IMG/VR virus record: IMGVR_UViG_3300035703_000009
Location: 1-64,000 of that record
Strand: one strand, 5' to 3'
From: a virus
Length of the DNA: 64,000 nt
Each line of letters starts with the position of its first letter. Position 1 is the first letter of the stretch. The notes under the pieces were generated by a model that was given only the letters and a program-made list of their open reading frames with translations, had not been told where the DNA came from and did no database searches. This document shows, piece by piece, positions 3,087-56,640 of this stretch. The position numbers and the translations under genes were made by a program.

Positions 3087-3090
3087 ATAG

Positions 3091-9502: not shown

Positions 9503-9895
9503 ATGAACATGCTTAAACTTAGAAGACTAGTAGAACAAGATGAACCGATGTCAGCAATGACTGCACCGGCTCAGCCTGACATGCAAATGCCAGCCATGCC
9601 AGCTGACTTACCTGCACAGCTACCTACTCCAGCTCAATCGACTGTACCTGTTGATCCGATGACAATGACTGTTAGGGACTTTTTAGATAAGTGCAAGTCA
9701 CTTGACCCTCTAGTTTGCATGGGCATAGAGTCATTCATAGAAAAAAATACTGAAGCTTTCGGCGCAGATCAAGCACAAAGTGAGCCAGACCTTACTTTCT
9801 CAAATGCAGTTCAACCTGCAGCACCTCAAGCACCAGCTCAAGTTGAACCATTTTCCCTAGATCAAGCACCGGACGCTCTTAACTTCCCGGGATAA
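9503..9895 (+). CDS. hypothetical Pro/Ala/Met/Gln-rich protein
   Basis: 130 aa. N-terminal low-complexity MPAMPADLPAQLP region. Confidence 0.45.
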   Translation: MNMLKLRRLVEQDEPMSAMTAPAQPDMQMPAMPADLPAQLPTPAQSTVPVDPMTMTVRDFLDKCKSLDPLVCMGIESFIEKNTEAFGADQAQSEPDLTFSNAVQPAAPQAPAQVEPFSLDQAPDALNFPG

Positions 9896-10179
9896 TGAGA
9901 GCAAAGAACTTCGATCAATACTTAAATGAAGTGCTAGGAGCAAATTCGATGGAAACCGACCCATTGGACTTAATCTTACGTCCAGACATTATTAGGCCCA
10001 ACCCAGTGACTTTGGGAGCTGGCTCAAGCTCGACAATACCTATGCATTGGAACAACTCACCATTTCTATCAGGAAGCAGGCTGACCAGTGCTTTTGGAAT
10101 AAATCCAAAGGCTCCGACTAGAAAGAAAGCATTACGCTTCCATGAGTTCATAGGAGCAGTTAAGAAGCTCACTAAATAA
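9895..10179 (+). CDS. hypothetical protein (94 aa)
   Basis: ORF coupled to the upstream gene by an ATGA overlap. Confidence 0.4.
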   Translation: MRAKNFDQYLNEVLGANSMETDPLDLILRPDIIRPNPVTLGAGSSSTIPMHWNNSPFLSGSRLTSAFGINPKAPTRKKALRFHEFIGAVKKLTK

Positions 10180-10190
10180 ATAATAAAAAG
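10175..10190 (+). promoter_or_regulatory. T4-late-like promoter motif AATAAATAATAAAAAG
   Basis: Exact copy of the recurrent 14-mer, 6 nt upstream of the ATG at 10197. Confidence 0.55.
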
Positions 10191-15371: not shown

Positions 15372-15387
15372 GTTTTTATTATTTATC
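15372..15387 (-). promoter_or_regulatory. T4-late-like promoter motif (reverse-complement GATAAATAATAAAAAC)
   Basis: Exact 14-mer in minus orientation, immediately upstream of the start at 15363. Confidence 0.55.
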
Positions 15388-15395
15388 AACCCAAC

Positions 15396-16565
15396 TTACG
15401 CTAAAATGAGATCAAATGCCGAGTCTGAAAAGTATTGAGCGAGCATGGAATTAAAGCTCACAAAGGTTAAAGAAGAATCTCGAATCGAGAGGAAGAGGTA
15501 AAGGTCATTGATGTCTTTCACATCAAGCAAGAGTCGAGCCGATTGGGGATATTTCTTCTTTAGGTCGCTTATCAGCTTGGTCCACAAGAAGACTTGATAT
15601 CCCTGCTTCAGAAGCTCAATCGATTGCTGCTTACCGGCCTTGTCGTTGTCGAAGAGAATACGAGAGTTCTTTTTGGTGACCAAGTTACCGAGTAAGGCCT
15701 TGCTCTTTGTCACGCCGGTGGTGGCGATCGAGTTGTCAAGGAACATCGAATCGATCTGGCCCTCAGTAATAATTATGGGACGCGAGAAGTCAACGTTCAG
15801 CACGTTGAAGTAGTTATTTAACGAGTCGATTTCTTGAATCAGGCTGTCCTCCAGGTCCCTCACGAGGCCGTTCTTTTTGAGTTCAGAATAGTTCTTGATG
15901 TTGTACTTTGGTCCGGGCATGGAATCATCGAGCTTACGTAGGGCAAAGCCCAGCATTCGGCCCGACTTGAGGTCTAGGTTGAATAAGTACACCTTGTCCT
16001 GTCGAGAGTCATAATAACAACTCGACTCAAACACAGGTAGACTGTCAATCTTACGCTTTTTGACGAATCGGCCGACTGGGCTCTCAGGATCGGCCTCACT
16101 GCAAGGTAACAGAGAAAACCTCTCGACTAGGTCATCAAACATTAGCAGTTTCTGACCGATCTCACGATTGATGAGAAGCTCTATTAAAAAGCCTCTCTTC
16201 TTTAGCGTGGTCTCAGGCTTGAACTCTACTCGCTTCTTCTCTAACCCAGGTAGGGTCAAGTTATACTTGGTTGAAAAGTGGGAGATGAACTTTGCAAGCG
16301 GCACCCACACCATGCAACCGTCGTTGTAACACTTATAGGTATGGGTTTTGAGGTAGAGGTTACCTCGTTTCTTGTGTGAATCGGATGCGGAGTCGCCACA
16401 GTAAGGGCAGGCAATGTTTATCTTGTCTCCGTCTGACTCATATATCTCTTGCTTAGTCAACTCGTTTGGAAACCTTCGCTTCAGTACTGCCTTACAGAAC
16501 TGTTGCAGAGAGTAGTCGGTCTTCAGGTCCAGTTGGTTATTCATCGTCAGTGTCATCTTCTCCAT
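15396..16565 (-). CDS. gp61: DNA primase (T4 gp61 / DnaG-like: zinc-binding domain + TOPRIM)
   Basis: CPYCGDSASDSHKKRGNLYL...KCYNDGC zinc finger. ITEGQIDSMFL and LFDNDKAGK match TOPRIM E and DxD motifs. Confidence 0.6.
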   Translation of the reverse strand: MEKMTLTMNNQLDLKTDYSLQQFCKAVLKRRFPNELTKQEIYESDGDKINIACPYCGDSASDSHKKRGNLYLKTHTYKCYNDGCMVWVPLAKFISHFSTKYNLTLPGLEKKRVEFKPETTLKKRGFLIELLINREIGQKLLMFDDLVERFSLLPCSEADPESPVGRFVKKRKIDSLPVFESSCYYDSRQDKVYLFNLDLKSGRMLGFALRKLDDSMPGPKYNIKNYSELKKNGLVRDLEDSLIQEIDSLNNYFNVLNVDFSRPIIITEGQIDSMFLDNSIATTGVTKSKALLGNLVTKKNSRILFDNDKAGKQQSIELLKQGYQVFLWTKLISDLKKKYPQSARLLLDVKDINDLYLFLSIRDSSLTFVSFNSMLAQYFSDSAFDLILA

Positions 16566-17973
16566 TTTCAGCCTCGACTAGTGCGGCTTGTTTCTTCTTA
16601 GTGAGTCGTTTAATGTATTTGTCCAGCTCAAACTTCGGCACGATCACCGAGTTTAGGCCGTACTTTGTGATGGTCGCAAGGTACTCTGGAAAGTCATCCT
16701 CTGAGACTTGAGTTTCAGGATTACCGATTATCTTCCAGAACTTTTGTGGAGTCTCAATGTATTCTAGAGAGTCTTGGTTGACCACATAAAGCGGATAGAT
16801 CTGATCATCCGTGAGATCTTTTTTAGACTTAACAGTCACAACTTCGACTGCTCTTTTTAGATGCGTGTCGATTGAGCTCATCTTCATCGCGACGAGGAGT
16901 CGATTGATGGGTTCGACGATTAAGGTAAAGAATTGTTGGTCACGATCCATAGGCGGAGCGAGCTCAGTAGGATAATTTTCAGGAGCATAGGCAAATACAT
17001 CAAAGTTGTGCTCGTTTGGAGCGCAATAGTAGAACTTGATCTTGTCCTTTTCGCGAATGAGCGAGTACTTTTGGTTGAGTCCGCTCTTAAGCAGAAGATA
17101 GTTATAGTAAGCCGATGCTCGAGGATAGATTGAGATACCCTTCTTAAGGTTTAGGGTCGTAATGTCCTCGACATACTTGTTATAGACTCGCACGTTAAAG
17201 TTAAAGGCTAATTCAGTAGGGTGGAGTTCCATGAACTCTTCCTTAAGAGCTTGTAGCTTGGGAATGAGGTCACGCTCAATATTCAGCTTCTTACCGATCT
17301 CGAGGATGTATTCATCTAGCTTGATCAGGTTCTTACGAGCCCAGTCAGGATAGGAACCTTTGATCGGTTCTAAGCCCTTGATGACTAGGTAACGTTTTTC
17401 TTTAGGCATCAGTGCCAAGTTAGGATTCGGATCGTAAGCTACCTTGATCGCATAGTTCTTTTTCTTGAGCCAGATGCCATACTCAGACAGGTTCTCAAGC
17501 TTGAACTTGAGACGGTTCTTCGTGTTGAAGATCTTTCCGTACTTTTCAAAGCACTGGTCAAAGTATTTCGATAGTCTGTGATGGTCGATGGCGACACAAA
17601 TCGCTAGGGCTTCTTCACGAGTGAATGAAGCGCCTTCTATCGAATCGATAGCTGATTCAAACTGCACGTAAATGGAGTCAGTATCAGTGTAGATTGCAGC
17701 TTCACGCTCGATCTTATTGATCTTGTATCCGTCGATTTTCAATATCTGGTGAAGCTCAGTATCAAGGTGCCACTTTTCTTGAAAGTAGTAGTTCACTGCC
17801 TTGATGGAAAACTTGATCAAGTCTTGGCCCTGTAAAGTTATAGATTGGGCGATGTCTGGGTTGTAAAAATAGAACCACTTGTTACCAAAGGCTCCATAGA
17901 TTGAGTTAATTAAGATCTTGACTGCGTTTTGCTTAAGGTCTAACTTTTTGATCTGCTTTGTTATGTCTTCCAT
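16537..17973 (-). CDS. gp43: family-B DNA polymerase, C-terminal fragment (T4 gp43-like, from motif B onward)
   Basis: KILINSIYGAFGN (motif B, KxxxNSxYG) near the N-terminus and YTDTDSIYV (motif C). No motif A or exonuclease domain. No upstream ORF continues the frame. Confidence 0.8.
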   Translation of the reverse strand: MEDITKQIKKLDLKQNAVKILINSIYGAFGNKWFYFYNPDIAQSITLQGQDLIKFSIKAVNYYFQEKWHLDTELHQILKIDGYKINKIEREAAIYTDTDSIYVQFESAIDSIEGASFTREEALAICVAIDHHRLSKYFDQCFEKYGKIFNTKNRLKFKLENLSEYGIWLKKKNYAIKVAYDPNPNLALMPKEKRYLVIKGLEPIKGSYPDWARKNLIKLDEYILEIGKKLNIERDLIPKLQALKEEFMELHPTELAFNFNVRVYNKYVEDITTLNLKKGISIYPRASAYYNYLLLKSGLNQKYSLIREKDKIKFYYCAPNEHNFDVFAYAPENYPTELAPPMDRDQQFFTLIVEPINRLLVAMKMSSIDTHLKRAVEVVTVKSKKDLTDDQIYPLYVVNQDSLEYIETPQKFWKIIGNPETQVSEDDFPEYLATITKYGLNSVIVPKFELDKYIKRLTKKKQAALVEAENGEDDTDDE

Positions 17974-18109: not shown

Positions 18110-18125
18110 ATAAATAATAAAAAGC
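18110..18125 (+). promoter_or_regulatory. T4-late-like promoter motif AATAAATAATAAAAAG
   Basis: Exact 14-mer, 8 nt upstream of the ATG at 18134. Confidence 0.55.
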
Positions 18126-22076: not shown

Positions 22077-22562
22077 TTAACCCTGAAAGTCGTAGAATTT
22101 ATAGCAAGTGGAACCTACTCTAAAGTATTCATCATTCTCAAAGTCCATTGGTTCTATCGTGGAAATGATTTCGTTGCCTAGTTCCACTGAACTGCCGTCT
22201 GGTGAGTACATTTTTGCAGTATCAACGTTGGCTTGACCCGCAATGATTAGCTTGAGGTCATACTTTTCGTAAAGACGATGTGCGGTATCCGAATAGTCTA
22301 CGTCTGAATTAAGGATGATGAAAACTGACGGGTATTTGATCTTTTTACCTTCCTTGTCAAGGGTAGCGACCTGCTTGATGATGTTTTCTTGAGCTTTATT
22401 TTCCTCTAAGTAGCTTAAATAACTGCTCCTGGTCCTAAATACTAGGATGGCAAACGGTCTTTTCATTTGCAAGGTGTCGCGGACCTCAGTCCAAGTCGGA
22501 GAAGGAGTCTCTTGCTGTTCATTAAGATAATGCTGGAAGGTTTTTAGCTTTTTTTGAGCCAC
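22077..22562 (-). CDS. hypothetical protein (161 aa, GTG start), late-expressed
   Basis: Late-promoter motif lies 10 nt upstream on the minus strand. Confidence 0.5.
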   Translation of the reverse strand: MAQKKLKTFQHYLNEQQETPSPTWTEVRDTLQMKRPFAILVFRTRSSYLSYLEENKAQENIIKQVATLDKEGKKIKYPSVFIILNSDVDYSDTAHRLYEKYDLKLIIAGQANVDTAKMYSPDGSSVELGNEIISTIEPMDFENDEYFRVGSTCYKFYDFQG

Positions 22563-22572
22563 TTGGACGAAA

Positions 22573-22588
22573 CTTTTTATTATTTATC
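22573..22588 (-). promoter_or_regulatory. T4-late-like promoter motif (reverse-complement GATAAATAATAAAAAG)
   Basis: Exact 14-mer in minus orientation upstream of the start at 22562. Confidence 0.55.
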
Positions 22589-22624: not shown

Positions 22625-23185
22625 ATGATTACTCAACTTGACATATATGACTTTGACGAGACGTTAGTCAGAGCTCCAAGCTATACAAACAAAAAAACAG
22701 TAGAAAGAGCTCATCCTGAGCATAATTTTGACACGCCGTATGCCTTTTACGATCACTCAAAGTCCCTGTGTGAGGACTTACACCACATACAGCTCATTGC
22801 ACCAGTATATGAGTGTTGGGGTCAGGCAAACCAAAACCCATCGGCAATCACAGCATTGGTCACGCACAGAGTAGAAAGCCTAGCGGATGAAGTAAAGGAC
22901 GTGTTGAACAGACGTGGCGTATCAATGGACTACTACTTCTTTTATGGAAGGGCTATCCCAAAGTTCAAAGCGATTGAGGAACTGCTCGAAAGGTTTCCAA
23001 ACATCAAGAAAGTAAGGATATTTGATGACTCATACGAACAGATCGACATCTACTTGACATACATTAACATCATCAAAGAAATAGACCATGACATTGAATA
23101 TGAGTTGTGGGCAGTAGACAAGACCAAGATATTTAAAGTAAACTCGCTAAACATTAGCGAACCTAAACGTATAAGTCTGATATGA
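22625..23185 (+). CDS. HAD-superfamily phosphatase, T4 Pnkp 3'-phosphatase-domain-like
   Basis: LDIYDFDETL (DxDxT motif I) and KVRIFDDSYEQIDIY resemble T4 Pnkp KAVIFDVDGTL / KLAIDDRTQVVEMW. Confidence 0.5.
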   Translation: MITQLDIYDFDETLVRAPSYTNKKTVERAHPEHNFDTPYAFYDHSKSLCEDLHHIQLIAPVYECWGQANQNPSAITALVTHRVESLADEVKDVLNRRGVSMDYYFFYGRAIPKFKAIEELLERFPNIKKVRIFDDSYEQIDIYLTYINIIKEIDHDIEYELWAVDKTKIFKVNSLNISEPKRISLI

Positions 23186-23778
23186 TAGTGATGATAGAAG
23201 GCCCACGTAACGTCGGCAAGACCACACTTATGTCCTCTTTTCTTGAAAAGAACAAGGATTCTAACGTGATCTATTACAAGTTTCTCTTTGCAAAGTACAT
23301 CGATCAGTTTAACATGCGAGACCAGGAATCTGGACCAGGCATGCACTACTTTAGCTTAGGCAACATACTTAGCATCTTTGAGCTTAATCAGACTCTATTT
23401 AAAGACAAGATCATCTTATTTGACCGATGCATCCACTCAGCCTATGTCTGGGCGATCTATCGAGAAAGGTTAGGTCGTGAAAAGTTGTTGGCTGAATACT
23501 CAAAGATACTCAACAGTGAGCTCTACACCGATTGCTCTACCTTTTACATCAATCGTCGAGAATCTATCAAGACTAAAACTAGAGGAAAGGACTTATTTGA
23601 TAACTTTGAAAGTCATGATAAAGAGTTGGCCCTGTTTGAAGAGCTGCTCGACTTAAACATGAAACCCGTCTCAGACGCCAATAGAGGAAATCACTTTGTG
23701 AAGTTCATCAATGATTTTAACGATGAAAGCATTAGAGATTTCAACTACGTACTTGGTGACTTGATAAAGAGAGGGTAG
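23182..23778 (+). CDS. P-loop kinase, candidate polynucleotide 5'-kinase (Pnkp kinase-domain-like)
   Basis: IVMIEGPRNVGKTTL Walker A. About 198 aa. Start overlaps the upstream HAD gene (ATGA). Confidence 0.4.
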   Translation: MIVMIEGPRNVGKTTLMSSFLEKNKDSNVIYYKFLFAKYIDQFNMRDQESGPGMHYFSLGNILSIFELNQTLFKDKIILFDRCIHSAYVWAIYRERLGREKLLAEYSKILNSELYTDCSTFYINRRESIKTKTRGKDLFDNFESHDKELALFEELLDLNMKPVSDANRGNHFVKFINDFNDESIRDFNYVLGDLIKRG

Positions 23779-23786
23779 TTTGCCTT

Positions 23787-23802
23787 AATAAATAATAAAA
23801 AA
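23787..23802 (+). promoter_or_regulatory. T4-late-like promoter motif AATAAATAATAAAAAA
   Basis: Exact 14-mer, 10 nt upstream of the ATG at 23813. An extended 20-mer CCTTAATAAATAATAAAAAA recurs at 52846. Confidence 0.55.
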
Positions 23803-23812
23803 CCAAGTAAGG

Positions 23813-24382
23813 ATGCGTAAAGAACTTAGATCCTTTGACCAATATTTAGTCGAACAAGCGGAGACAGCAGTCGCTAACCGTCCGTTAAAAGGATATACTG
23901 CCGAACAAATGATCACCAGGATCGGAGAACTAATGGAAGTTCTATCTGATGACATTCGATTTGGAGTTCCATCTGACACTCTTGGTAGAGTCACTACTTA
24001 TCGTGATGCAAACGGTGCCATCCAAAAGATCCAAGACATGCAGCACTACTATTCAAGCAAGGGCGAAGAAGTTCGCTTCTATGCATGGTCAATCAGTTAT
24101 TCAGGTAGCTGGAAGGCGACCAAGAATCTAAAGAGTAAAATCGAGGCTGCTGGAGGGTTTGGAGAAGAGAAGCTAAATATGAATCTTAAAAAGATCATAG
24201 ACTACTTTACTGAGAACGCAGAGGACTCCGACAACGTTCGTAGCATATCGATCAGCATGGACGCAGAGAGCATTCGCAAGGCCATGCAAAAGCCTGCTGA
24301 AAAACCAGAAGCCGCTGAGACTCCAGCGCCGACTGAAACCGCTAAATCTGAAGAAAAACCAGCTGAAACACCGGCTGAATAA
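23813..24382 (+). CDS. hypothetical protein (189 aa) with Pro/Glu/Ala/Thr-rich tail, late-expressed
   Basis: Late-promoter motif upstream. C-terminal PAEKPEAAETPAPTETAKSEEKPAETPAE. Confidence 0.5.
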   Translation: MRKELRSFDQYLVEQAETAVANRPLKGYTAEQMITRIGELMEVLSDDIRFGVPSDTLGRVTTYRDANGAIQKIQDMQHYYSSKGEEVRFYAWSISYSGSWKATKNLKSKIEAAGGFGEEKLNMNLKKIIDYFTENAEDSDNVRSISISMDAESIRKAMQKPAEKPEAAETPAPTETAKSEEKPAETPAE

Positions 24383-24385
24383 TCT

Positions 24386-26296
24386 ATGGCAGGAATAAAC
24401 AACTTACGAGAAATACGCGACAAGCGCGGGGATGACTTTTTAAATGGCATGATGAATAATTACGTCATCATCAATGAGAAGGTCGATGGCACATTCTTTG
24501 GAGTAAAAAAGACTAAAGGAGACCTATTTAAGTACTTCAAGAAATCGGGAGAGATCAGCTATGTCGATCGAGTGCTGATGAAGTACTACAACCACGTGAT
24601 CGCATATTTTGAGTCGATTCCTCTCGAGAAGAGGCAACGTATTCCAACAAATTTCTTTTTTGGATTCGAGTACTTGACCAAACGTGACGCAGCGGCAAGC
24701 CGATACTCAAGGATGCCAAAGAATGGCTTGGTTCTTTCCTACATCCATAAGTTAGATGATGCTGGAAACGTCATTGCTACAGTTCAAACAAAAGAACATC
24801 TTGATAGATGGGCGGACTATCTAGGAGTAGAGAGACCGCCGATAATCTTTGAAGGCAAGCTCGACGACGAACAAAGAGCCGAGATACTTGAGTTCGTCTA
24901 TGCACCAAACGATAAGTTATACGAAAAATTCAAGACCAAGTCCTTTACCAAGTACATCATCTCGGTTCTAAACAAGGATTATGAGTCGGCCTTCTTAAAG
25001 AACTCTAAGGAAGCTGGAATCGAAGGAATCATTTTTAGGTTCTATGATCAGAACTCTGAAAACCCAGAAGCAAACGTCTTCCTAGCAAAGTTGATAGATC
25101 CGCTATTTCAAGCAAAGGTAAAAGAAGGCGAGCCTGCTCGTAAGAATTCCTCGCAAGACTATATCTGGCTGATCGTCATCGACCTAATGAACCACTTTGA
25201 GATGTATGACCTTTCCGCATTAAAGGAAATGGCAAGCACACCAGGATCCTTTGAAGAAAAGTACGTGCAAATCATCAATTCCATATTTAAAGACTTTATT
25301 AAACAATACGCTGGCAAGTATGCAGGTCTGCATCTAGAGGTTCCAGAATACTTAAATCGACCTGAGTTCAACCTTGATTTTAGCCTAATCCAGGATCCAG
25401 AAGTAAAGAAGTTGGTCGAATCCAGCGAGACCTATGCTGAGATCTATAAGATCTTGCTCAACTTTTTCAGAAAGGCTCGTAAGAAATCGACTTCGGGTTT
25501 CTTCACCAACGAGTTACTGACTCAACTCAACCTCATCGTCGCAAAGATTCGTAACGTGATCATGGGAGACGAGGTGTATGAGGGACTCTTCCCAAGCTTT
25601 AGCGAGTTTGTGGGATCAGCAAACGATGAGTACATGCTGAGCGAGAAAGAAGTCGCTGAGCGCAATAGCAAAAAAGTCGAGGCTAATGAGGTCAATGTTC
25701 TAATTGGAAGCTTTCAGCCAGTGACGATGGGTCACATCAAAGCGGCAAAGAAGCTAAAGGAAAAGAACGGGTTACCGTGCGTCTTTGTTGCGATAAAGCC
25801 TCAATCGCCCACCGCAAAGTCACCTTTTTCTCCACGCTTAACTAAAGCACTATTAGACAAGGTGCAACAGGAGTTTAACGACCTGATAGTCGACGTCAAG
25901 ATAGTCGACTCTGGCCAGATTGAGGATGTAGTAGGCACATTGACTCCAAACTATGAACCTGCTCTTTGGGGAACAACTGAGCGTCGTCTTAAGGACTTTG
26001 CTCTGCAATTAGATTACATCAAAAAAAGAAACATTCCAATAAGGCTCTCTTCGAACCTAAAGTTGACTGAATTACCAGTCTACGTTAGATCAGAAGAAGT
26101 TATTGCTGCCATAAAGAGCTCAGACTTTGCTGAATTCAAAAAGCTAGTGCCAATATCTGTCGCATCAGAGTTCTTTAACTTACAAAAAGAGCTCGGATCG
26201 AAGATTGATGAAGCGACTAATTCAATGCAGAAGATATTTGAATCCGCAGAGATCTCGATTGAGATCGAGGATCCAAAGCTAAAGGAATCGGACTAA
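24386..26296 (+). CDS. RNA ligase (Rnl2-like nucleotidyltransferase) fused to a C-terminal HxGH nucleotidyltransferase-like (NMNAT/cytidylyltransferase-fold) domain
   Basis: N-terminal EKVDGTFFG (motif I KxDG), EGIIFRF (motif IV) and FLAKLIDP (motif V). The C-terminal 200 aa carries VLIGSFQPVTMGHIKAAKKL (a GxFxPxHxGH-like motif) and an SxxxIR-like segment. Confidence 0.55.
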   Translation: MAGINNLREIRDKRGDDFLNGMMNNYVIINEKVDGTFFGVKKTKGDLFKYFKKSGEISYVDRVLMKYYNHVIAYFESIPLEKRQRIPTNFFFGFEYLTKRDAAASRYSRMPKNGLVLSYIHKLDDAGNVIATVQTKEHLDRWADYLGVERPPIIFEGKLDDEQRAEILEFVYAPNDKLYEKFKTKSFTKYIISVLNKDYESAFLKNSKEAGIEGIIFRFYDQNSENPEANVFLAKLIDPLFQAKVKEGEPARKNSSQDYIWLIVIDLMNHFEMYDLSALKEMASTPGSFEEKYVQIINSIFKDFIKQYAGKYAGLHLEVPEYLNRPEFNLDFSLIQDPEVKKLVESSETYAEIYKILLNFFRKARKKSTSGFFTNELLTQLNLIVAKIRNVIMGDEVYEGLFPSFSEFVGSANDEYMLSEKEVAERNSKKVEANEVNVLIGSFQPVTMGHIKAAKKLKEKNGLPCVFVAIKPQSPTAKSPFSPRLTKALLDKVQQEFNDLIVDVKIVDSGQIEDVVGTLTPNYEPALWGTTERRLKDFALQLDYIKKRNIPIRLSSNLKLTELPVYVRSEEVIAAIKSSDFAEFKKLVPISVASEFFNLQKELGSKIDEATNSMQKIFESAEISIEIEDPKLKESD

Positions 26297-26360
26297 ATTA
26301 AAACCTTTTATCAAAAAAGGATATAATATTGGTAAGCAAAAAAAAGCTTTACTCGACCGA

Positions 26361-27932
26361 ATGAAGTATACAGAACTCGAAGAAGCTGACATAGATTACA
26401 TTTCTGAAATCTATTTCAACAAGGAAATTTCATGGGATCAGCGACTTCGCATGCTCTCTGAACGCTATAAAAGATCTGAGCGCACGATTCAACACTGGAT
26501 CTCAAAGCTAGGATTTAGCACCAAACAACAAGAAGAATCTCCGCAGCTGATCGCTGCCAAGTCCCGAGAGCTAGATCGAAGCAAATCGAAGTTCATCATC
26601 ACCTGGGCACAAAACAATACTGACGTTCACGAAAGGTTTATCACCAACCTAGAAGCATATGCTGCTGAGCTGGATGCCAGCATTCACGTGATTGCAGGTA
26701 GATACAAGAACCCAACATCTGTGTTTACCGATCGCAAGTATGACGTATGGTCAGACCGAATCGAAAGGTACTTGGACGCGAATCGTCATGATGTGCATAA
26801 GTACGTCTCAATCATGTCTGACGTGAAGATACAGCCGACTGCGGTCGATCCGATGACGGGCTTACAGGGCATGAGCGGTATCAATTCCTGCGTTTTTGGT
26901 TCGCCTAAGGTGCAGATGGAAATGATCCCAGTTTTGACTGGCAACAGACCAAAGATGATGGTAACTACTGGCGCATGCACAGTGAAGAACTACACCGACT
27001 CAAAGGCCGGTAAAAAGGGCGAGTTTCATCACACTCTAGGATTTGCCATCATTGAGATCAAGGACGATGACACTTTTTTCATAAGACAAGTAACAGCTTC
27101 AGATAACGGAGACTTTAACGACCTATACTTTAACGTAAAGTACTCTGAAGGTGAGGGTAAGAGCTCAATTAGTCGTAACTCATCGATCGCTGCACTAGTG
27201 TTAGGCGATCTACACTATGGTCAACATGATCCTCAAGTATTAGACCAATCATTTAACCTGATGGCCAAGTTAAGTCCCGATCACGTCATCATCCACGACG
27301 CGTTTGACGGAACCTCAATCAACCATCATGAGACCAAGGACCCATTTGTCCAATACCAAAAGGAAATGGCTGGCACAAACTCGCTAAAGAAGGAGATAGA
27401 TGCCTTGTTGCTTGGCCTTGAAGACTTTCAAGACTATAACGTGGTCATCGTTCGCAGCAACCACGACGACTTCATCGATCGTTGGTTAAAGGACACCGAT
27501 TGGAGAAAGACTGTCACCCCAAAGAACTCTCTCGAATACATGCAATACTCGGCAGCCATACTAAGCGGCCAAGCTCCAAACGGAGTCATTCCATACCTGA
27601 TCAACCAAAAGTTTCCTCACTTTAAGACACTAGGCAGAAACGATAGCTACCTGGTGAAGGGCTGGGAACTAGGTCAGCATGGAGATATCGGTTCGAGCGG
27701 AACCAGGGGATCGCTATTACAGTTACGCAAGCTCAACACCAAGATAGTGGTAGGCCACTATCATGCTCCAGGCAGAAAAGACGGTGCTTTGTCAGTTGGA
27801 ACCTCGACCAAGCTTCGCCTAAACTATAACCTAGGCGCTAGCAGTTGGTTACAGTCTCACGTAATCATCCATCAAGACGGAAAAGCACAACACATTAACT
27901 TTATTAACGGCGAATTCACTACTCTAGAATAA
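26361..27932 (+). CDS. calcineurin-like metallophosphoesterase with N-terminal HTH-like region
   Basis: LVLGDLHYGQHD (GDxHG), VVIVRSNHDD (GNHD/E) and later GQHGD / VVGHYH motifs. Confidence 0.55.
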   Translation: MKYTELEEADIDYISEIYFNKEISWDQRLRMLSERYKRSERTIQHWISKLGFSTKQQEESPQLIAAKSRELDRSKSKFIITWAQNNTDVHERFITNLEAYAAELDASIHVIAGRYKNPTSVFTDRKYDVWSDRIERYLDANRHDVHKYVSIMSDVKIQPTAVDPMTGLQGMSGINSCVFGSPKVQMEMIPVLTGNRPKMMVTTGACTVKNYTDSKAGKKGEFHHTLGFAIIEIKDDDTFFIRQVTASDNGDFNDLYFNVKYSEGEGKSSISRNSSIAALVLGDLHYGQHDPQVLDQSFNLMAKLSPDHVIIHDAFDGTSINHHETKDPFVQYQKEMAGTNSLKKEIDALLLGLEDFQDYNVVIVRSNHDDFIDRWLKDTDWRKTVTPKNSLEYMQYSAAILSGQAPNGVIPYLINQKFPHFKTLGRNDSYLVKGWELGQHGDIGSSGTRGSLLQLRKLNTKIVVGHYHAPGRKDGALSVGTSTKLRLNYNLGASSWLQSHVIIHQDGKAQHINFINGEFTTLE

Positions 27933-29874: not shown

Positions 29875-29890
29875 AATAAATAATAAAAAG
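29875..29890 (+). promoter_or_regulatory. T4-late-like promoter motif AATAAATAATAAAAAG
   Basis: Exact 14-mer, 11 nt upstream of the ATG at 29902. Confidence 0.55.
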
Positions 29891-36986: not shown

Positions 36987-37266
36987 CTATCTTAATGTTG
37001 TTTTCTTCTTTGAACTTTTCCCAAGCAGCCGCATCCATCATGTCTGGAAAGCGTGAGCCTCCATTGCAAGACTCCTTTACATAGATCTTGCCGGGAAAGG
37101 AACATCCGCAATTGATGCAAAATTCATATACGGCACAGTCATTCTTACAGACCTGTGAACGATAAAAGACTTGCTCTTTTTCGTGCTTAGGCAAGAGGTG
37201 GAACTGGTCGCCCAGCATCTTTAGGTTGCCCTCAATGAACTGGTAGATTTTCTTAGGGGTTATCAT
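36964..37266 (-). CDS. Cys-rich hypothetical protein (100 aa)
   Basis: CKNDCAVYEFCINCGCSFPGK cluster. Overlaps its neighbours by a few nt. Confidence 0.35.
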   Translation of the reverse strand: MITPKKIYQFIEGNLKMLGDQFHLLPKHEKEQVFYRSQVCKNDCAVYEFCINCGCSFPGKIYVKESCNGGSRFPDMMDAAAWEKFKEENNIKIDDLLHRH

Positions 37267-38153
37267 TTTCCTCTTAATGTTTTTCTTTTGTCAAGTTCAG
37301 ACTTAAGAACTTCTCTGGGGCCGTAACCTCCTCTAGCGCTTTCGATATCACGAATGCTCTTTATCAGCTTAATGAGTCCTTGGGGCTCGACTGAAGCTAT
37401 TTGATCACTGCCCCAAAGAGAACGATCGACTGTGATGTGACGTTCGATCCAGGTGGCTCCAAGCAAAGTTGCAGCAATGGTCGTAGTAAGTCCAAACTCA
37501 TGACCGGAATACCCCACCGCAAATGACTTTGGAAAGTCTTTACCCTTACTGATGTGGCTCAAGTAGGTGATATAGTCGAGATTAAGTTCATGATTTGGAG
37601 CAGGATAAGTAGAGTTAGTATGAAAAACTACATCAGGTCTACATTCAACTACTGCTAAGTCTATTTCCTCTTGTGTGCTCATACCGGTGGAGATAAGGAG
37701 AAAGTCTGAACAGTCTCGTGCGTATTGAATTAGCTCGAGGTCATGGATTAGGGCCGATGGTATTTTCATCATCACTCCCCACTTGCCATTAGGTAAGAGG
37801 GTCTCAAATTTTCGCGCAAAGTCAACTGACTTTTTGTCCCACACTGAGGTAAACCAACGCATTTTTCGAGCTTCGCAATAGTCATCTATTTCCTTGTACT
37901 GTTCATGGGAAAGCTCAATGTCGAGTTTATATTGAAAGTAAGTGGTCGCCTCTTTGCGCCAGGGCACCCTTTTTGTTTTTGACCTTTCCGCTTGAGGAAC
38001 ACACGATTCAGGATCACGTTTTTGAAACTTTACATAATCAACTCCGGAAACTGCCGCAATATCAATAAGTTTTTTTACATTATTGATGAATTCCTTCGTA
38101 GAGGAACCATATGCATAATTTATGCCTATTTCTGCAATTATCGTGGTTTTCAT
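37263..38153 (-). CDS. neuB: NeuB-family nonulosonic acid (sialic/legionaminic/pseudaminic acid) synthase
   Basis: IIAEIGINYAYGS, VKFQ, ISTGMST, VGYSGHEFG and IERHITVD match NeuB motifs IIAEIGCNHNG / ISTGMAT / VGYSDHSLG / IEKHFTLD. The start is set at the internal Met, which gives an ATGA overlap with the upstream gene. The ORF-track 5' extension reaches 38225. Confidence 0.75.
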   Translation of the reverse strand: MKTTIIAEIGINYAYGSSTKEFINNVKKLIDIAAVSGVDYVKFQKRDPESCVPQAERSKTKRVPWRKEATTYFQYKLDIELSHEQYKEIDDYCEARKMRWFTSVWDKKSVDFARKFETLLPNGKWGVMMKIPSALIHDLELIQYARDCSDFLLISTGMSTQEEIDLAVVECRPDVVFHTNSTYPAPNHELNLDYITYLSHISKGKDFPKSFAVGYSGHEFGLTTTIAATLLGATWIERHITVDRSLWGSDQIASVEPQGLIKLIKSIRDIESARGGYGPREVLKSELDKRKTLRGK

Positions 38154-39184
38154 GAGTTTACTAGAGAGTTTATCCAAGAAAAAGTTTTTTTCATTCCATC
38201 TACTAAAGGCTGGGAGACTTTCCAACCCATTTTTTCTTCATAAAGTTGGTTGTCTGAATTTCTACCTTTGACTCCAATTGGACACTTGAATCCGTACTTT
38301 TTCTTGAATTCTTCGCCTTCTATATTTTCAATAGAGATATTTTTATTTGAGATTAAGATCGCCATTTCAGCAAGTTGATTAATTGTAACCATCTCTTCAG
38401 AACCGATGTTGACAGGTCCTAAGAATCCATCTTGTCTCATGAATCTAAGAACTGCTTCAACACAATCATCAATGTACAAAAAAGAGCGAGTCTGCATACC
38501 GTCTCCCCAAACTTCTATGATACCTCCGCTCTGGGTTTCTGCTACTTTGCGGCACATTGCAGCGGGAGCCTTTTCCTTACCTCCTTTCCAAGTTCCATAG
38601 GGGCCAAATATGTTATGGAACCTGGCAATTCGCACGTCTAGCCCGTAGTTTCTATGAAAAGCTAAATAAAGTCGCTCACTAAAAAGTTTTTCCCAACCGT
38701 ATTCTGAGTCAGGATTTGCTGGATATGCTGATGACTCTTCACAATTTGGGTTATTTGGATCGAGCTGATTGTGCTCTGGGTACATGCACGCAGAAGAGCT
38801 ATAGAAAATCTTCTTTACTGATTTTTTGACGGCTTCATGTGCAACATTTAAGTTTATTAGAGATGAGTTATGCATTACATTAGCATCGTTATTACCTGTA
38901 AAAATATAACCAGCTCCTCCCATGTCAGCAGCAAGTTGATAAACTTCATCGAAAGATTTTTCTCTGTCCCCTTCAAAAGTTTGATTAGGAGATAACATGA
39001 CACAACTTACAAACTTAGGGTCTCTAAGATCACCTAAAATAAACTCATCACAAAAATCATCTTTATCAAAGTACTCATGAACTTTAATGTCAACTGCTCT
39101 GACCCAAAAGCCTTCTTCCTTTAATTTTTTAGCCAGGTGGCCTCCTATGAAGCCTCCTCCACCAAGTACTAGTGCCTTTTTCAT
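38150..39184 (-). CDS. NAD-dependent epimerase/dehydratase (GDP-L-fucose synthase-like extended SDR)
   Basis: LVLGGGGFIGGHL Rossmann motif. YSSSACMYP and VWGDGMQTRSFLYIDD resemble Fcl LGSSCIYP / VWGSGTPMREFLHVDD. Confidence 0.55.
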   Translation of the reverse strand: MKKALVLGGGGFIGGHLAKKLKEEGFWVRAVDIKVHEYFDKDDFCDEFILGDLRDPKFVSCVMLSPNQTFEGDREKSFDEVYQLAADMGGAGYIFTGNNDANVMHNSSLINLNVAHEAVKKSVKKIFYSSSACMYPEHNQLDPNNPNCEESSAYPANPDSEYGWEKLFSERLYLAFHRNYGLDVRIARFHNIFGPYGTWKGGKEKAPAAMCRKVAETQSGGIIEVWGDGMQTRSFLYIDDCVEAVLRFMRQDGFLGPVNIGSEEMVTINQLAEMAILISNKNISIENIEGEEFKKKYGFKCPIGVKGRNSDNQLYEEKMGWKVSQPLVDGMKKTFSWINSLVNS

Positions 39185-39921
39185 AATTTTCTTTTATTTT
39201 TTTCAAAAATTTTGTCTCCTGGAAAGGAGGCTGTATTTATGAATCCTTTTTGAGTTAAGAAAGCCATCATTTCATCTAGTGAATTTCCTGCCTGAACCGT
39301 ATGCTTTTGGTCCCACTCAATTATAAGAGTAAGGTTATTTGCTTTTTCTAAAAAATCGCTCATACCTTTTAATACATTCATCTCAAACCCTTGAACATCA
39401 ATTTTTATTAACCCAATATCGTAACTTGGATTTTCAAGTAAAAACGTGTCTAATTTTTTACAGACAACTTGCTCAGTAATGTAATTTTTAGAATTCATAT
39501 TAGAGATCGCAACCTCTTTGTTAAAGGAAGCATTGTCTGAGCAATAAGGAATGAATATTTCTTGAGTAGTATCAGAATCAAATAGAGCAAAGTTTAGAAT
39601 TTGCATGTTTTTACAAGAGTTTGCACTTTTACTCTGCTCTAACAATGAAACATTCATACTAAGCGGCTCAACTGATAGTACGGAATAACCATATTTTTCA
39701 GCAGGTATTGAAAACATTCCGCAATTTGCACCAACATCTAACACAGACCTAGATTTATCCATTTTTCTTACAAGATTAAGCATCATAGTGTAATCCTTCA
39801 TCTCATTGAGGTTTGTTCTAGCTTTTATTTTATAGTCAGTGACAAAATAGTCAAAATTAAAGATTACGTATTCAAAATTAGCGTTTTTAAAAATAAATCT
39901 TTCAGGTTTAGTAGAAATCAT
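39181..39921 (-). CDS. FkbM-family methyltransferase
   Basis: VLDVGANCGMFSIPAEK...VLSVEP matches the FkbM DVGANxG...EP signature. Confidence 0.5.
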   Translation of the reverse strand: MISTKPERFIFKNANFEYVIFNFDYFVTDYKIKARTNLNEMKDYTMMLNLVRKMDKSRSVLDVGANCGMFSIPAEKYGYSVLSVEPLSMNVSLLEQSKSANSCKNMQILNFALFDSDTTQEIFIPYCSDNASFNKEVAISNMNSKNYITEQVVCKKLDTFLLENPSYDIGLIKIDVQGFEMNVLKGMSDFLEKANNLTLIIEWDQKHTVQAGNSLDEMMAFLTQKGFINTASFPGDKIFEKNKRKL

Positions 39922-39932
39922 GAGCGTTTAGA

Positions 39933-40715
39933 TTATTTGAAGTAAGAATCATAATTAAAATCAGATAACTTATTTGAATAGTAATGAGGTCCTATTATTT
40001 TTAAGAATGCGTTTTGGTCCTTGATTCCACCGTCAGTGTCGCTAGCATTAGTCAACTGATTAGCCATACCGGGAGTAAATGAATAGCAGTTTAACGAAGG
40101 CTCAATTAGTATGAATGAGTGATCTATTGCTCGAGATCGGTGCACACACGCGTCCAGTAACTCTACTATTTTAGGTATTGAACTTGGATTAATTAAATAT
40201 GAGTGGCCGCAAAAAGAACCATATACTCGGTGTATGTACTTGATTCCAGTTAACTCATAATCCCCTCCTTTATTCCAACGACTGGGATCATTGTTTAGAT
40301 GATAAAAAGAAGAAAGGAAAAATATGTCCCAATCTAGGTTAAATTTTTCTTCAATGTACTTAAATCTTTCGTTAAAATCTTCGCAGAGAATGACATCATC
40401 TTCAAATATTCCAAGTATCTTATCACTGCTAGTATCGTATTCTTTAATTAGAGTGTAGTGGGAGCGATAGCATTTTTTCTGTCCTTCAGAAAAGGCTGAA
40501 CTAAATGGTATGCTGCAGCCAGATAAGTCTTCGTACGCTCTAAATTTTTTAGCATCGATGTTATGCTTTTTTAATTCAGAATTAACGTGGGCAAGTCTGT
40601 CTACTCTTCTGTCTAAATTTATGAAATAGAAGTCAATGTTCTTTCTTTCTATTTTTAAGAAGGTTTTTGTGTGAGCCATATACTTATGTATTATTTTTGT
40701 CTTATTTTTATCCAT
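39933..40715 (-). CDS. GT25-family glycosyltransferase
   Basis: FYFINLDRRVDRLAHV N-terminal motif and FEDDVIL, typical of GT25. Confidence 0.5.
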   Translation of the reverse strand: MDKNKTKIIHKYMAHTKTFLKIERKNIDFYFINLDRRVDRLAHVNSELKKHNIDAKKFRAYEDLSGCSIPFSSAFSEGQKKCYRSHYTLIKEYDTSSDKILGIFEDDVILCEDFNERFKYIEEKFNLDWDIFFLSSFYHLNNDPSRWNKGGDYELTGIKYIHRVYGSFCGHSYLINPSSIPKIVELLDACVHRSRAIDHSFILIEPSLNCYSFTPGMANQLTNASDTDGGIKDQNAFLKIIGPHYYSNKLSDFNYDSYFK

Positions 40716-41530
40716 CTTTCTGGAGTCAAAGCATTAGTATCAAAGCTTTGATAGTCTGGTCCAAACCACTCATCTGGATAAGGACAGTAAACAAGCTTAT
40801 CCGTAGATTTTGATAAATATGCAGCCCACCATGAAAAAGTACTGTTTGCAATAATGAAGTGGTCACACAAAGACTGAGCTATGAAGTCACTAATATAATC
40901 ATCGCTATAGTCAAAATAAGTAATAGGTTTTTGATATTTTTCAAATTTTCCAAATATGAATTCTTTAGTATCTTCATTATCAGTAAAGATGCATATTTCA
41001 TCGATGCTTTTTTTAGATAAAATGTCTTCTATACTTCTTTGATAGTATTCTAAAGTAAGAACTGGGTGTCTATGCTCGACACCTTTATGCCCTCCTCCAA
41101 ATTTACGATCATACTGATCACCCCAGCGTATGTGAATCGAAAGTTTCTTTGAGTTCTGATTCATTTTACTATTAACCTTTTCTATAATAGTTGGGTCAAA
41201 GACCAAATACTCAAGTACTTTTTTTTCATAATCATCAAAAAACAAAGAGGACTGAAAATATCCTACTATTTCTACTAATTTATCACTAGTTGGAATATTG
41301 TGGATTCCAAATTTAGATTCCTTATGAGTCAGTGAAATATTTGACTTTATTTTGACAGAGGAACGTGTAGGTAGATTTGGAAAAAGCTTTGCGTGCTCCC
41401 ACTCAGATGGAACAAAAAAGCTACTGTTGTTCTTAATTGCTTGACCAATAATAGTCGCAACTCTAAACAATTGATTGCCAAGGCGTCCATGACGATGGTC
41501 TAATATTTGCAAAGTAGTGAAACCTTTCAT
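40691..41530 (-). CDS. GT11-like alpha-1,2-fucosyltransferase
   Basis: HGRLGNQLF (GGLGNQMFQ-like) and LSIHIRWGDQY (HxRRGDY-like) motifs. Confidence 0.5.
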   Translation of the reverse strand: MKGFTTLQILDHRHGRLGNQLFRVATIIGQAIKNNSSFFVPSEWEHAKLFPNLPTRSSVKIKSNISLTHKESKFGIHNIPTSDKLVEIVGYFQSSLFFDDYEKKVLEYLVFDPTIIEKVNSKMNQNSKKLSIHIRWGDQYDRKFGGGHKGVEHRHPVLTLEYYQRSIEDILSKKSIDEICIFTDNEDTKEFIFGKFEKYQKPITYFDYSDDYISDFIAQSLCDHFIIANSTFSWWAAYLSKSTDKLVYCPYPDEWFGPDYQSFDTNALTPERWIKIRQK

Positions 41531-41546
41531 ATTTAAAAATTGTTTT

Positions 41547-42464
41547 TTATGAGTTTTGTACTACACTAGACTCAATGAGTTTAGACGGAAGCATTATTTT
41601 CGGTTCACTGAAACTTGCACTTTTAAAAAATTTATCATTATAATTGATAGTGTTTCGAGTAAGTGTGTGATGAAAGATTCCATCGTAATAGCTTTGGCTA
41701 TGATATACACTAGCTACATAGCTAAGAGAACTCTTTGACATTATGAATGCATCTGATTTGATTATTCTATCTAGCGTTTTTACAGGGTGCTCATCTAAAT
41801 GAAAAAATACTTTTCCATGCGCATTAAGTTCATTAAAATATTGAAAATCTAAAATGTCACCTTGAGAGTAAATATGAAATTGAATATTTTTATTAGTGGG
41901 CATGATTTCTTTAACGAAGTCAATGGAGCCGTTAGGAATATTGGGGTAATAATATCTACGCCATTCGGAGAAATCAGTGTCCTCGTCAGTAGCTCGTCTA
42001 ACATGAATAGAAATAATGAAATCTGAATTTTCTTCTCTTGGGTATTTTTTAATTAACTCTTCTTGAATATTGTTTAATAGAAAAATGTTATGGTCAGTTA
42101 GTGTCTTTAGATCTGCCCAGTGAAGATTAACTATTGATTTTTCTAAAGAGGAAGGATTATATATTAAAGTGTCTAACAATTCATATACACTCAGCTCTAC
42201 TACAGGAAGCGAATCAGACTCAGTAATCGAGTCTCTTAATAAAAAATCTCGAGTATATTCAAAAAAATGAAGATCCCATTCTTCTTGAGAAAAATTAAAT
42301 TTTTGAATGTGTCCAACGTTTTTCATTGGAGTTAATAAAAAATCAACTCCATAGTGTTTAGCCAATGCATAGCCGCCTAATTGAAGTTGAAAGGCAGAAC
42401 CAAAACCTTCGTTGTGTCCAGGAAGGTATAAATTTGAACAATCTATCTCACATTTTATTATCAT
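41547..42464 (-). CDS. putative glycosyltransferase (GT11-like?)
   Basis: GFGSAFQLQLGGYA and SIHVRRATDED weakly resemble GT11 motifs. Confidence 0.3.
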   Translation of the reverse strand: MIIKCEIDCSNLYLPGHNEGFGSAFQLQLGGYALAKHYGVDFLLTPMKNVGHIQKFNFSQEEWDLHFFEYTRDFLLRDSITESDSLPVVELSVYELLDTLIYNPSSLEKSIVNLHWADLKTLTDHNIFLLNNIQEELIKKYPREENSDFIISIHVRRATDEDTDFSEWRRYYYPNIPNGSIDFVKEIMPTNKNIQFHIYSQGDILDFQYFNELNAHGKVFFHLDEHPVKTLDRIIKSDAFIMSKSSLSYVASVYHSQSYYDGIFHHTLTRNTINYNDKFFKSASFSEPKIMLPSKLIESSVVQNS

Positions 42465-44366: not shown

Positions 44367-44376
44367 CGTAGTTCAT

Positions 44377-49052: not shown

Positions 49053-49055
49053 TAT

Positions 49056-52850: not shown

Positions 52851-52867
52851 AATAAATAATAAAAAAA
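52851..52867 (+). promoter_or_regulatory. T4-late-like promoter motif AATAAATAATAAAAAAA
   Basis: Exact 14-mer, 10 nt upstream of the TTG start at 52877. Flanked by complementary aaagcctt / aaggcttt arms. Confidence 0.55.
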
Positions 52868-56624: not shown

Positions 56625-56640
56625 GATAAATAATAAAAAC
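56625..56640 (+). promoter_or_regulatory. T4-late-like promoter motif GATAAATAATAAAAAC
   Basis: Exact 14-mer, 11 nt upstream of the ATG at 56652. Confidence 0.55.

Follow-up and report, generated by a model that had tools for sequence, protein, structure and literature searches.

RNA repair is a classic way in which phages counter host anticodon nucleases, and few phage RNA-repair enzyme architectures have, to our knowledge, been characterised. In phage T4, the repair of tRNA combines the end-healing enzyme Pnkp, encoded by pseT, with an RNA ligase, Rnl1 or Rnl2. The locus described here occupies positions 22625-27932 of the window, i.e., the whole stretch of 64,000 nt that was analysed (IMG/VR record IMGVR_UViG_3300035703_000009, positions 1-64,000). 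It consists of five open reading frames (ORFs), all on the plus strand, as reported in the original prediction, an earlier note made from the DNA letters of this stretch. Its core is a widespread, poorly annotated module built from parts other than those of T4: a SAK-like HAD phosphatase (ORF1), a kinase with a nucleotide-kinase fold (ORF2), and an RNA-ligase fold fused to an adenylyltransferase that resembles nicotinamide mononucleotide adenylyltransferase (NMNAT) and phosphopantetheine adenylyltransferase (PPAT) (ORF4). With a probability of roughly 0.4, these three genes form an end-healing-and-sealing module, probably for RNA. The features of the module are as follows:

22625-23185, plus strand: ORF1, 186 aa, HAD-superfamily phosphatase, HAD_SAK_1-like.
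23182-23778, plus strand: ORF2, 198 aa, P-loop kinase of the thymidylate kinase (TMPK), deoxynucleoside kinase (dNK) and NadR riboside kinase (NadR-RNK) fold class.
24386-26296, plus strand: ORF4, whole gene, 636 aa, fusion of a ligase and a nucleotidyltransferase (ligase-NTase).
24386-25600, plus strand: N-terminal part of ORF4, residues 1 to about 405, covalent-nucleotidyltransferase (RNA ligase) domain of the Rnl2/Trl1 fold with a helical C-terminal subdomain.
25670-26296, plus strand: C-terminal part of ORF4, residues about 430-636, HIGH-superfamily nucleotidyltransferase, NMNAT/PPAT-like.

In the proposed scheme, the substrate would be a break with polynucleotide ends, probably in an RNA such as a tRNA cut by a host defence nuclease. 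The ORF2 kinase would phosphorylate the 5'-OH end, the ORF1 phosphatase would remove the 3'- or 2'-phosphate, and the ligase fold of ORF4 would join the ends. The fused adenylyltransferase would play an accessory role, either adenylylating the 5'-phosphate directly or supplying a nucleotide cofactor. The folds, motifs and conserved gene order are observed, and from them we infer the substrates and the RNA-repair role. Phosphatase, kinase, ligase and nucleotidyltransferase domains encoded in the same orientation, by genes that are translationally coupled or tightly packed, fit a healing-and-sealing function, and the RNA-ligase fold together with the SAK-type HAD points to RNA as the target. Moreover, a kinase and a phosphatase expressed together would be expected to act on opposite ends of a break, since their action on one small metabolite would amount to a futile cycle. 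If the module indeed heals and seals RNA, it would widen the known repertoire of end-healing enzymes.

The cassette resembles T4 tRNA repair in combining a phage 5'-kinase (as proposed here), a HAD phosphatase and an ATP-type RNA-ligase fold, and T4 Rnl2 is the closest structure to the ORF4 ligase domain. However, T4 Pnkp consists of AAA_33 and HAD_PNKP domains, whereas here separate genes encode proteins of TMPK/dNK-like and HAD_SAK_1-like families. The T4 ligases also lack a HIGH nucleotidyltransferase domain, and in part of the ORF4 family the motif I lysine is dispensable. Fungal and plant Trl1 (ligase-kinase-cyclic phosphodiesterase) likewise brings together a ligase, a P-loop kinase and an end-healing phosphoesterase, and its ligase domain is among the best structural matches of ORF4. 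Unlike the phage genes, it is a single polypeptide with a kinase of another class and a 2H cyclic phosphodiesterase in place of a HAD, and without a HIGH nucleotidyltransferase. In the bacterial Pnkp/Hen1 system, a calcineurin-type phosphoesterase and a ligase-fold adenylyltransferase occur together, as they do here, but phosphoesterase, kinase and ligase form one protein partnered with the Hen1 methyltransferase; at this locus they are encoded separately, and the phosphoesterase (ORF5) is of the A1 family. No Hen1-like methyltransferase was found in the cassette or its immediate flanks, the rest of the window being only partly annotated. Standalone SAK-type HAD proteins of jumbo phages also occur alongside ligases and kinases (Iyer et al. 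2021, PMC7824862), the match of ORF1 to this type being a borderline one, and that survey makes no mention of a fusion between a ligase and a HIGH nucleotidyltransferase.

ORF1 contains the four HAD motifs (DFDET, LVTHR, K113 and FDDS). In 12 homologues, residues D9, D11, T13, T80, K113 and D135 show no variation; in four of these proteins, D134 of the DD pair is exchanged for Glu, a conservative substitution. The Pfam family HAD_SAK_1 (PF10307) is matched at E=1.1e-5 with 25.8 bits (cutoff 25.6), over profile positions 68-181 only. The same annotation is carried by 8 of 10 close homologues, whereas more distant orthologues either miss the cutoff, with 21.6 and 17.0 bits, or match other HAD families. 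These results bear out the earlier assignment of ORF1 as a HAD phosphatase. The resemblance to the phosphatase of T4 Pnkp, which had also been claimed, extends only to the DxDxT motif: hhalign aligned the ORF1 profile with T4 Pnkp over 14 columns around it, at a probability of 2.3%. ORF1 has no Pfam match to HAD_PNKP or PNK3P, whereas T4 Pnkp matches HAD_PNKP at 2.8e-59. Since the alignment is confined to DxDxT and HAD_PNKP is not matched, the likeness to Pnkp is generic HAD similarity. The ORF1 profile gave chance-level matches only among PDB sequences, and tblastn of ORF1 and of ORF2 found no matches among phage records. HAD_SAK_1-type HAD proteins were described as standalone RNA-end phosphatases in jumbo phages (PMC7824862), and the Pfam label of PF10307 is 'Swiss Army Knife RNA repair'. 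For ORF1, the proposed role is that of an enzyme which would heal 3'- or 2'-phosphate ends.

The gene of ORF2 overlaps that of ORF1 by 4 nt (ATGA), so that its ATG shares the stop codon of ORF1; that the two genes overlap was already noted in the original prediction. Its identification there as a P-loop kinase agrees with the Walker A motif (IEGPRNVGKT), which is accompanied by an FDRxxxSAY motif and a basic lid. These three elements are signatures of thymidylate and deoxynucleoside kinases, and ORF2 indeed shows every trait that defines the TMPK/dNK fold class: the IEGxxxxGK(S/T)T P-loop, a DR(Y/S)-type motif after strand 3, an Arg-rich lid and the overall fold. The AlphaFold2 (AF2) model is confident (pLDDT 89.7), and its Foldseek matches are mainly TMPKs, dNKs and herpesvirus thymidine kinases. 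By fold, its nearest counterparts are thymidylate kinases, deoxynucleoside kinases and the NadR riboside kinase; the top matches do not include a polynucleotide kinase. A profile of 25 ORF2 sequences, compared with all PDB sequences, matched only a dNK (E=0.007) and a TMPK (E=0.022).

The alignment of ORF2 with T4 Pnkp by hhalign covered the P-loop alone (24 columns), and ORF2 matched neither AAA_33, the Pfam family of the T4 Pnkp kinase, nor HAD_PNKP, both of which T4 Pnkp matches. On this evidence, together with the 14-column alignment of ORF1, the earlier view of ORF1 and ORF2 as a split, permuted Pnkp was rejected. ORF2 was also rejected as a canonical TMPK, with a TIGR00041 score of 14 bits against a cutoff of 83. 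The best match to Pfam Thymidylate_kin among 25 homologues is weak (E=3.1e-4), and the positions aligned to the dTMP-binding arginines of the TMPK motifs 'FPxR' and 'AxR' are, as read from the profile alignment, not Arg. The original prediction had named two outcomes that would contradict it, namely a deoxynucleoside monophosphate (dNMP) or nucleoside kinase with no RNA-end activity in place of ORF2 and a DNA ligase in place of ORF4. The modelled fold of ORF2 (TMPK, dNK, NadR-RNK) lies near the former. A 5'-OH kinase is nevertheless the role proposed for ORF2.

The N-terminal part of ORF4 contains the ligase motifs I (EK32VDG), III (FGFE95Y), IV (EGIIFRF) and V (LAK235LIDP). Pfam RNA_ligase (PF09414) matches it at E=2.9e-4 with 21.4 bits, under the cutoff of 27, and one relative (P0180) passes this cutoff with 32 bits. 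In the AF2 model (pLDDT 81), residues 1 to about 400 match T4 Rnl2 (E=4e-8), the ligase domain of fungal Trl1 (3e-7; 9r3w, E=3.3e-7, and 6n67), REL1 and archaeal Rnl3 in Foldseek, and no DNA ligase is among the top 50 matches. The predicted fold of this part is thus of the RNA-ligase type, in line with the Rnl2-type RNA ligase named in the original prediction. That account had also spoken of an RNA ligase fusion; it was right about the ligase fold and overlooked its partner, the NMNAT/PPAT-like HIGH nucleotidyltransferase.

The motif I lysine, K32, is present in ORF4 of the window. Among 121 close relatives, 14 have N, R, L, V or Q in its place, owing to at least 4 independent changes; among distant full-length relatives it is replaced in 33 of 109, and in an N-terminal alignment in 35 of 133. 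One lysine-less protein (P0119), with Asn at position 32, occurs on many contigs. Despite the loss of K32, residues E31, G35, K52, D61, F217, F219, K235, D238 and P239 are kept, as is the overall identity of the ligase domain. Motif I lysine mutants of other ligases (MthRnl K97A, Chlorella virus ligase K27A, and others) lose steps 1 and 2 of the reaction and retain full step 3 activity on pre-adenylated donors (PMC3514331).

The C-terminal part of ORF4 carries the HIGH motif GSFQPVTMGH450. H450 is conserved in all 121 close relatives (121/121). Among distant relatives, 29 of 33 lysine-less proteins retain H450, and 21 of 25 proteins without H450 retain the lysine. Pfam CTP_transf_like (PF01467) is matched at E=3.8e-4 (21.1 bits, cutoff 21), and the ORF4 profile finds PPAT (2.6e-5) and the archaeal NMNAT MJ0541 (5.6e-5) among PDB sequences. 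In Foldseek, residues of about 430-600 match NadM, archaeal NMNAT, PPAT and NadD, with TM-scores up to 0.73. In source databases, the fusions of this family are named 'cytidyltransferase-like' or 'phosphopantetheine adenylyltransferase'.

NMNAT-type enzymes transfer AMP onto a 5'-phosphate, giving an A(5')pp(5')N linkage. By analogy, the fused HIGH domain might adenylylate the 5'-phosphate of RNA (ATP + pN-RNA -> A(5')pp(5')N-RNA + PPi), so that the ligase fold would perform step 3 only, in which the 3'-OH attacks AppRNA, and the kinase of dNK/TMPK fold would take the 5'-terminal nucleoside of the RNA as its 'nucleoside'. Such a lysine-independent, two-domain ligation would explain the constant fusion of ligase and nucleotidyltransferase, the invariance of H450 in the close clade, and the repeated loss of K32 with motifs III-V and the rest of the pocket still under selection. 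We consider this specific mechanism improbable. If the adenylyltransferase did feed AppRNA to a lysine-independent ligase fold, it would represent a new ligation mechanism and a potentially useful enzyme.

The same nucleotidyltransferase and kinase folds allow another reading, in which the locus would salvage NAD+ or another dinucleotide cofactor in the manner of a split NadR. ORF2 and the C-terminal domain of ORF4 would convert nicotinamide riboside to nicotinamide mononucleotide (NMN) and further to NAD+, for instance to counter NAD+-depleting defences; ORF1 would be a tuning nucleotidase, and the ligase fold would have an accessory or regulatory function. NadR and NadM, in which NMNAT is joined to a riboside kinase or a Nudix domain, do pair a HIGH nucleotidyltransferase with a GxFQPxxxGH motif and a P-loop kinase of the same fold class. 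At this locus, however, it is an RNA-ligase fold to which the nucleotidyltransferase is fused, and the kinase has a gene of its own. Salvage of NAD+ would leave without a role some 400 strongly conserved residues of RNA-ligase fold. The profile alignment of ORF4 to NMNAT ends before the NMN-binding region, which could not be aligned, and the score of PPAT is just as good. In the clade of the window, the second ATP motif (ISxTxxR) is degenerate, reading V-(K/R)-S-E-E-V-I (VRSEEVI), with Ser kept and Thr and Arg lost; distant relatives have R-D-I-S-A-T-K-V-R at this place. At the sequence level, the ORF2 profile finds dNK and TMPK, not NadR, and coupling the translation of the kinase to that of a phosphatase would be futile. 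Additionally, no Nampt or Nudix partner was identified in the annotated parts of the window. NAD+ salvage is, on these grounds, rather unlikely. If it were nevertheless the function, the phage would rebuild NAD+ against host defences in a new way, linked to a domain that binds polynucleotides.

The healing-and-sealing reading draws further on the conservation of gene order. Homologues of ORF4 are numerous: 494 matches were obtained among scored candidates in a 90%-identity database, 502 clusters were counted at 50% identity, and the contigs come from many metagenomes and reach about 275 kb. From IMG/VR and metagenome data, 95 loci with an ORF4 homologue (numbered with the prefix L) were collected, and homologues of every neighbouring gene were mapped. 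As far as 37% ORF4 identity, the lineage shares one gene order: UvsW on the minus strand, two small genes on the minus strand, then HAD (not always present), kinase, ORF3 (not always present), ligase-NTase, A1 (not always present) and a small ORF. The kinase gene lies directly upstream of the ligase-NTase gene, or is parted from it by ORF3 only, in all of the about 80 loci with upstream sequence, at 37-69% identity, and where ORF3 is missing it abuts the ligase-NTase gene (L013, L080-97). The HAD gene is usually present and overlaps the start of the kinase gene. In other words, the presence pattern across loci makes kinase and ligase-NTase, usually with HAD, the core, and ORF3 and A1 its neighbours. 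The original prediction of an end-healing-and-sealing module is therefore plausible for the block of HAD, kinase and ligase-NTase, and ORF3 and ORF5, which it had counted in, are not members. That this linkage outlasts divergence and rearrangement supports one functional block.

The opposite reading is that there is no functional cassette at all, but only independent early genes which happen to be syntenic in one phage lineage. The whole region is indeed collinear across the lineage, from the UvsW gene to the downstream structural genes, and the losses of HAD, ORF3 and A1 are independent of one another; beyond the lineage, ligase-NTase genes are found with neither HAD nor kinase beside them. 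Mere coincidence fits poorly, however, with an adjacency of kinase and ligase-NTase genes that holds without exception, whatever was inserted or deleted on either side, and with stop and start codons that overlap or abut. In one locus (L015), it is the HAD gene that directly precedes the ligase-NTase gene; the upstream flank is short there, and no kinase was detected in it. Furthermore, the combination of phosphatase, kinase, ligase and nucleotidyltransferase is unlike a random functional draw. An absence of any cassette is accordingly a doubtful explanation, to which we give little credence.

Several observations weigh against an end-healing-and-sealing module for RNA. Most importantly, for three of the four catalytic domains (kinase, nucleotidyltransferase and HAD), the nearest relatives that have been characterised use small molecules as substrates, among them the NMNAT, PPAT and NadD relatives of the nucleotidyltransferase domain. 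It is for this reason that NAD+ salvage, discussed above, and DNA replication with dNMP salvage, discussed below, are two serious rivals. The motif I lysine lacks universal conservation across the ORF4 family. ORF1 is only a borderline match to HAD_SAK_1, a family whose link to RNA repair was itself predicted computationally. The HAD gene is dispensable in part of the lineage, being absent from one sub-lineage (L040, L043, L047-51, L054, L056-60, L092), and only unrelated inserts were found there in its place (PAS-histidine kinase, endolysin, holin, CAP, sugar enzymes). Among more distant relatives with 28-40% identity (L007-L011), no HAD or kinase lies within 7 kb of the ligase-NTase gene, whose neighbours are genes of gp32, UvsW, dUTPase, DNA polymerase B, ribonucleotide reductase (RNR), flap endonuclease (FEN) and ThyA. 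Because the whole region is collinear in the lineage, adjacency partly reflects inheritance and is only moderate evidence of shared function. Finally, no tRNA genes or Rfam RNAs were found in the 64-kb window.

Among the inserts of the HAD-less loci, one deserves a separate description. In L043, a histidine kinase with PAS and HATPase_c domains (2655-4079, minus strand) lies beside endolysin and holin genes, amid the conserved small genes upstream of the cassette.

The remaining features of the region are listed below:

23788-23801, plus strand: late-type promoter-like 14-mer ATAAATAATAAAAA, 12 nt 5' of the ORF3 start codon.
23813-24382, plus strand: ORF3, 189 aa, probable late prohead-targeted internal protein.
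26298-26327, plus strand: sigma-70-like promoter candidate TTAAAA-18-TATAAT in the gap between ORF4 and ORF5, 10/12 matches.
26361-27932, plus strand: ORF5, 523 aa, calcineurin-type metallophosphoesterase of the T5 A1 family.

The window is phage DNA. Upstream of the region it encodes a portal protein, a primase, a fragment of DNA polymerase, PhoH and the UvsW-like helicase, and downstream of it baseplate proteins, a prohead protease, a T4 gp23-like major capsid protein and topoisomerase II. The major capsid protein is nearest to that of the huge phage LR756500 (38% identity) and of Lak megaphages (32%), many T4-like phages being more remote. The source phage is a large, distantly T4-like myovirus of a widespread uncultured lineage, and no near-identical DNA was found among 50,697 phage records. 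The best matches of A1 and of the major capsid protein make a host among the Bacteroidota probable.

ORF5 has all the calcineurin-type motifs (GDLHYG, HDAFD, SNHD, HGD and GHYH). The PHROG family phrog_1745 matches its residues 42-520 at E=5e-146, and BLASTP aligns it with T5 A1 at 28% identity over 492 aa (E=4e-56). A tblastn search with ORF5 found 1132 phage records annotated as A1 or DNA transfer protein. Judged by its sequence, ORF5 is a full-length T5 A1 homologue. The earlier description as a metallophosphoesterase was therefore accurate as regards the calcineurin type, but the protein belongs to the T5 A1 family and not to the kind found in Pnkp/Hen1 systems. In T5, the pre-early protein A1 is essential and sufficient for the degradation of the host chromosome (bioRxiv 10.64898/2026.04.02.716235). 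The T5 gene lies in the terminal first-step-transfer repeat, whereas here the carrier is a T4-like myovirus, not a member of Demerecviridae, and A1 is found within the 64-kb window together with replication and structural genes. In distant loci, the A1 gene is on the opposite strand, split from the ligase-NTase gene by inserted sugar-metabolism genes, or absent. In effect, ORF5 is a neighbour with another role and no constant member of the module.

Long forms of ORF4 (950-1290 aa; P0180, P0182, P0192, P0194, P0198, P0212, P0228 and P0235), encoded at L012, L062-67 and L070-78, have a C-terminal extension of 350-450 residues. An invariant G..E..GD..ExK motif in this extension suggests a resemblance to PD-(D/E)xK nucleases; it matched no Pfam family, no PDB sequence and no ORF of the window. 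The long forms were also considered as fusions carrying the kinase or the HAD, in the sense of a Rosetta-stone test, and neither domain is present in the extensions. Ten long forms occur without A1 and one with it, and short forms occur with A1 in 57 cases and without it in 7, a pattern that rests on two or three lineages. It is at most a hint that nuclease activity accompanies the ligase-NTase protein.

The presence of A1 bears on the second rival, according to which the genes would serve DNA replication, repair and the salvage of dNMPs. ORF4 would serve the replisome by sealing nicks, for example in nicked duplexes or at RNA-DNA junctions; ORF2, as a diverged kinase of dNMPs or deoxynucleosides, would recycle the products of A1-driven breakdown of host DNA; and ORF1 would be a Dmp-like nucleotidase. 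The block is placed between genes of the UvsW helicase, PhoH, primase and DNA polymerase on one side and the A1 gene on the other. The distant ligase-NTase genes lie among the replication and nucleotide-metabolism genes enumerated above, which points the same way, but T4 RNA-repair genes also sit among nucleotide-metabolism genes, so that this context does not discriminate. ORF2 is closest to TMPK and dNK, yet matches canonical TMPK models weakly and lacks the dTMP-binding arginines. T5 pairs A1 with the dNMP phosphatase Dmp (bioRxiv 10.64898/2026.04.02.716235), but homology of ORF1 to Dmp was not supported, the hhalign probability of 1.9% being non-significant. The near-restriction of long-form ligase-NTase to loci without A1 is also in favour of this rival, although it rests on two or three lineages. 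Moreover, the ORF4 ligase fold matches RNA ligases and not DNA ligases, and A1 itself switches strand, can be separated by insertions, or is missing. We regard DNA replication and dNMP salvage as an unlikely function of the block, and healing and sealing of RNA ends remains the preferred reading.

ORF3 lies between the kinase and the ligase-NTase genes, 3 nt from the start of the latter, and matches no Pfam or PHROG family. Its N-terminus, MRKELRSFDQYLVEQAE, resembles the T4 capsid targeting sequence, which is MKTYQEFIAE (PMC8442874; also PMC9026906), and the pattern F-x-Q-[YF]-[LIV]-x-E is conserved among ORF3 homologues. ORF3 is probably a late, prohead-targeted head-internal protein that stands outside the enzymatic module. 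It is absent from many related loci (L013, L062-68, L080-97). The original prediction had included a 'late gene' in the module; its late character agrees with the promoter-like 14-mer and the capsid-targeting-like N-terminus, but the gene forms a separate unit.

The 14-mer ATAAATAATAAAAA occurs in eight exact copies in the window: 10176-10189 (plus), 15373-15386 (minus), 18110-18123 (plus), 22574-22587 (minus), 23788-23801 (plus), 29876-29889 (plus), 52852-52865 (plus) and 56626-56639 (plus). Allowing up to 2 mismatches raises the number to 16, where 1.8 would be expected. Of the exact copies, seven precede a start codon by about 10-25 nt, the genes concerned including the prohead protease and genes of the structural region; to the eighth (15373-15386, minus), no gene was assigned. 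This 14-mer is probably the late promoter of the phage. The T4 late promoter TATAAATA was rejected for this role, with one copy in the window, which is below chance. The sigma-70-like candidate at 26298-26327 is the best-scoring site of the region, the number of such sites being equal to chance, and it weakly suggests that ORF5 may form a separate transcription unit.

Small proteins with capsid-targeting-like N-termini are encoded at three places in the window, 23813-24382 (plus), 22077-22562 (minus) and 9895-10179 (plus), and also in L007 (4660-5259, 6704-7969 and 10670-11134). Examples are ..SFDQYLVEQ, ..TFQHYLNEQ and ..NFDQYLNEV, each of which ends in an (L/I/V)xE site of the prohead-protease type. 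In the huge phage LR756500, one of them is a 421-aa protein whose EKLDG motif is similar to ligase motif I. In huge-phage relatives, a protein of 421-430 aa is encoded directly upstream of the ligase-NTase gene (L007, 6704-7969; L010, 5705-6997); the two proteins are 40% identical, and each combines a capsid-targeting-like N-terminus with the EKLDG motif that is similar to motif I of ligases. These N-termini suggest that the T4-like lineage may have a set of packaged, injected proteins.

The ORF of the prohead protease (52877-54856, plus strand) is unusually long, with 659 aa, and only residues 17-307 match phrog_207 (head maturation protease). Its C-terminal half may be a fused scaffold-like region.

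A further block, at 37263-51765 on the minus strand, comprises about 14 kb of low GC content (31-36%) devoted to glycan biosynthesis. Its genes encode a NeuB sialic-acid synthase, an NAD-dependent epimerase/dehydratase, an FkbM methyltransferase, glycosyltransferases of families GT25 and GT11, UDP-glucose dehydrogenase, a GT29 sialyltransferase-like protein and a CMP-sugar cytidylyltransferase. This block is a nonulosonic-acid glycosylation cluster within the phage genome, and its composition suggests horizontal acquisition.

The DNA polymerase ORF (16537-17973, minus strand, 478 aa) matches phage polymerase profiles in their C-terminal part only, and it overlaps a primase-like ORF (15396-16565, minus strand) by 29 nt. 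The polymerase may be split, as in relatives in which DNA polymerase B is encoded in pieces (L010, L007).

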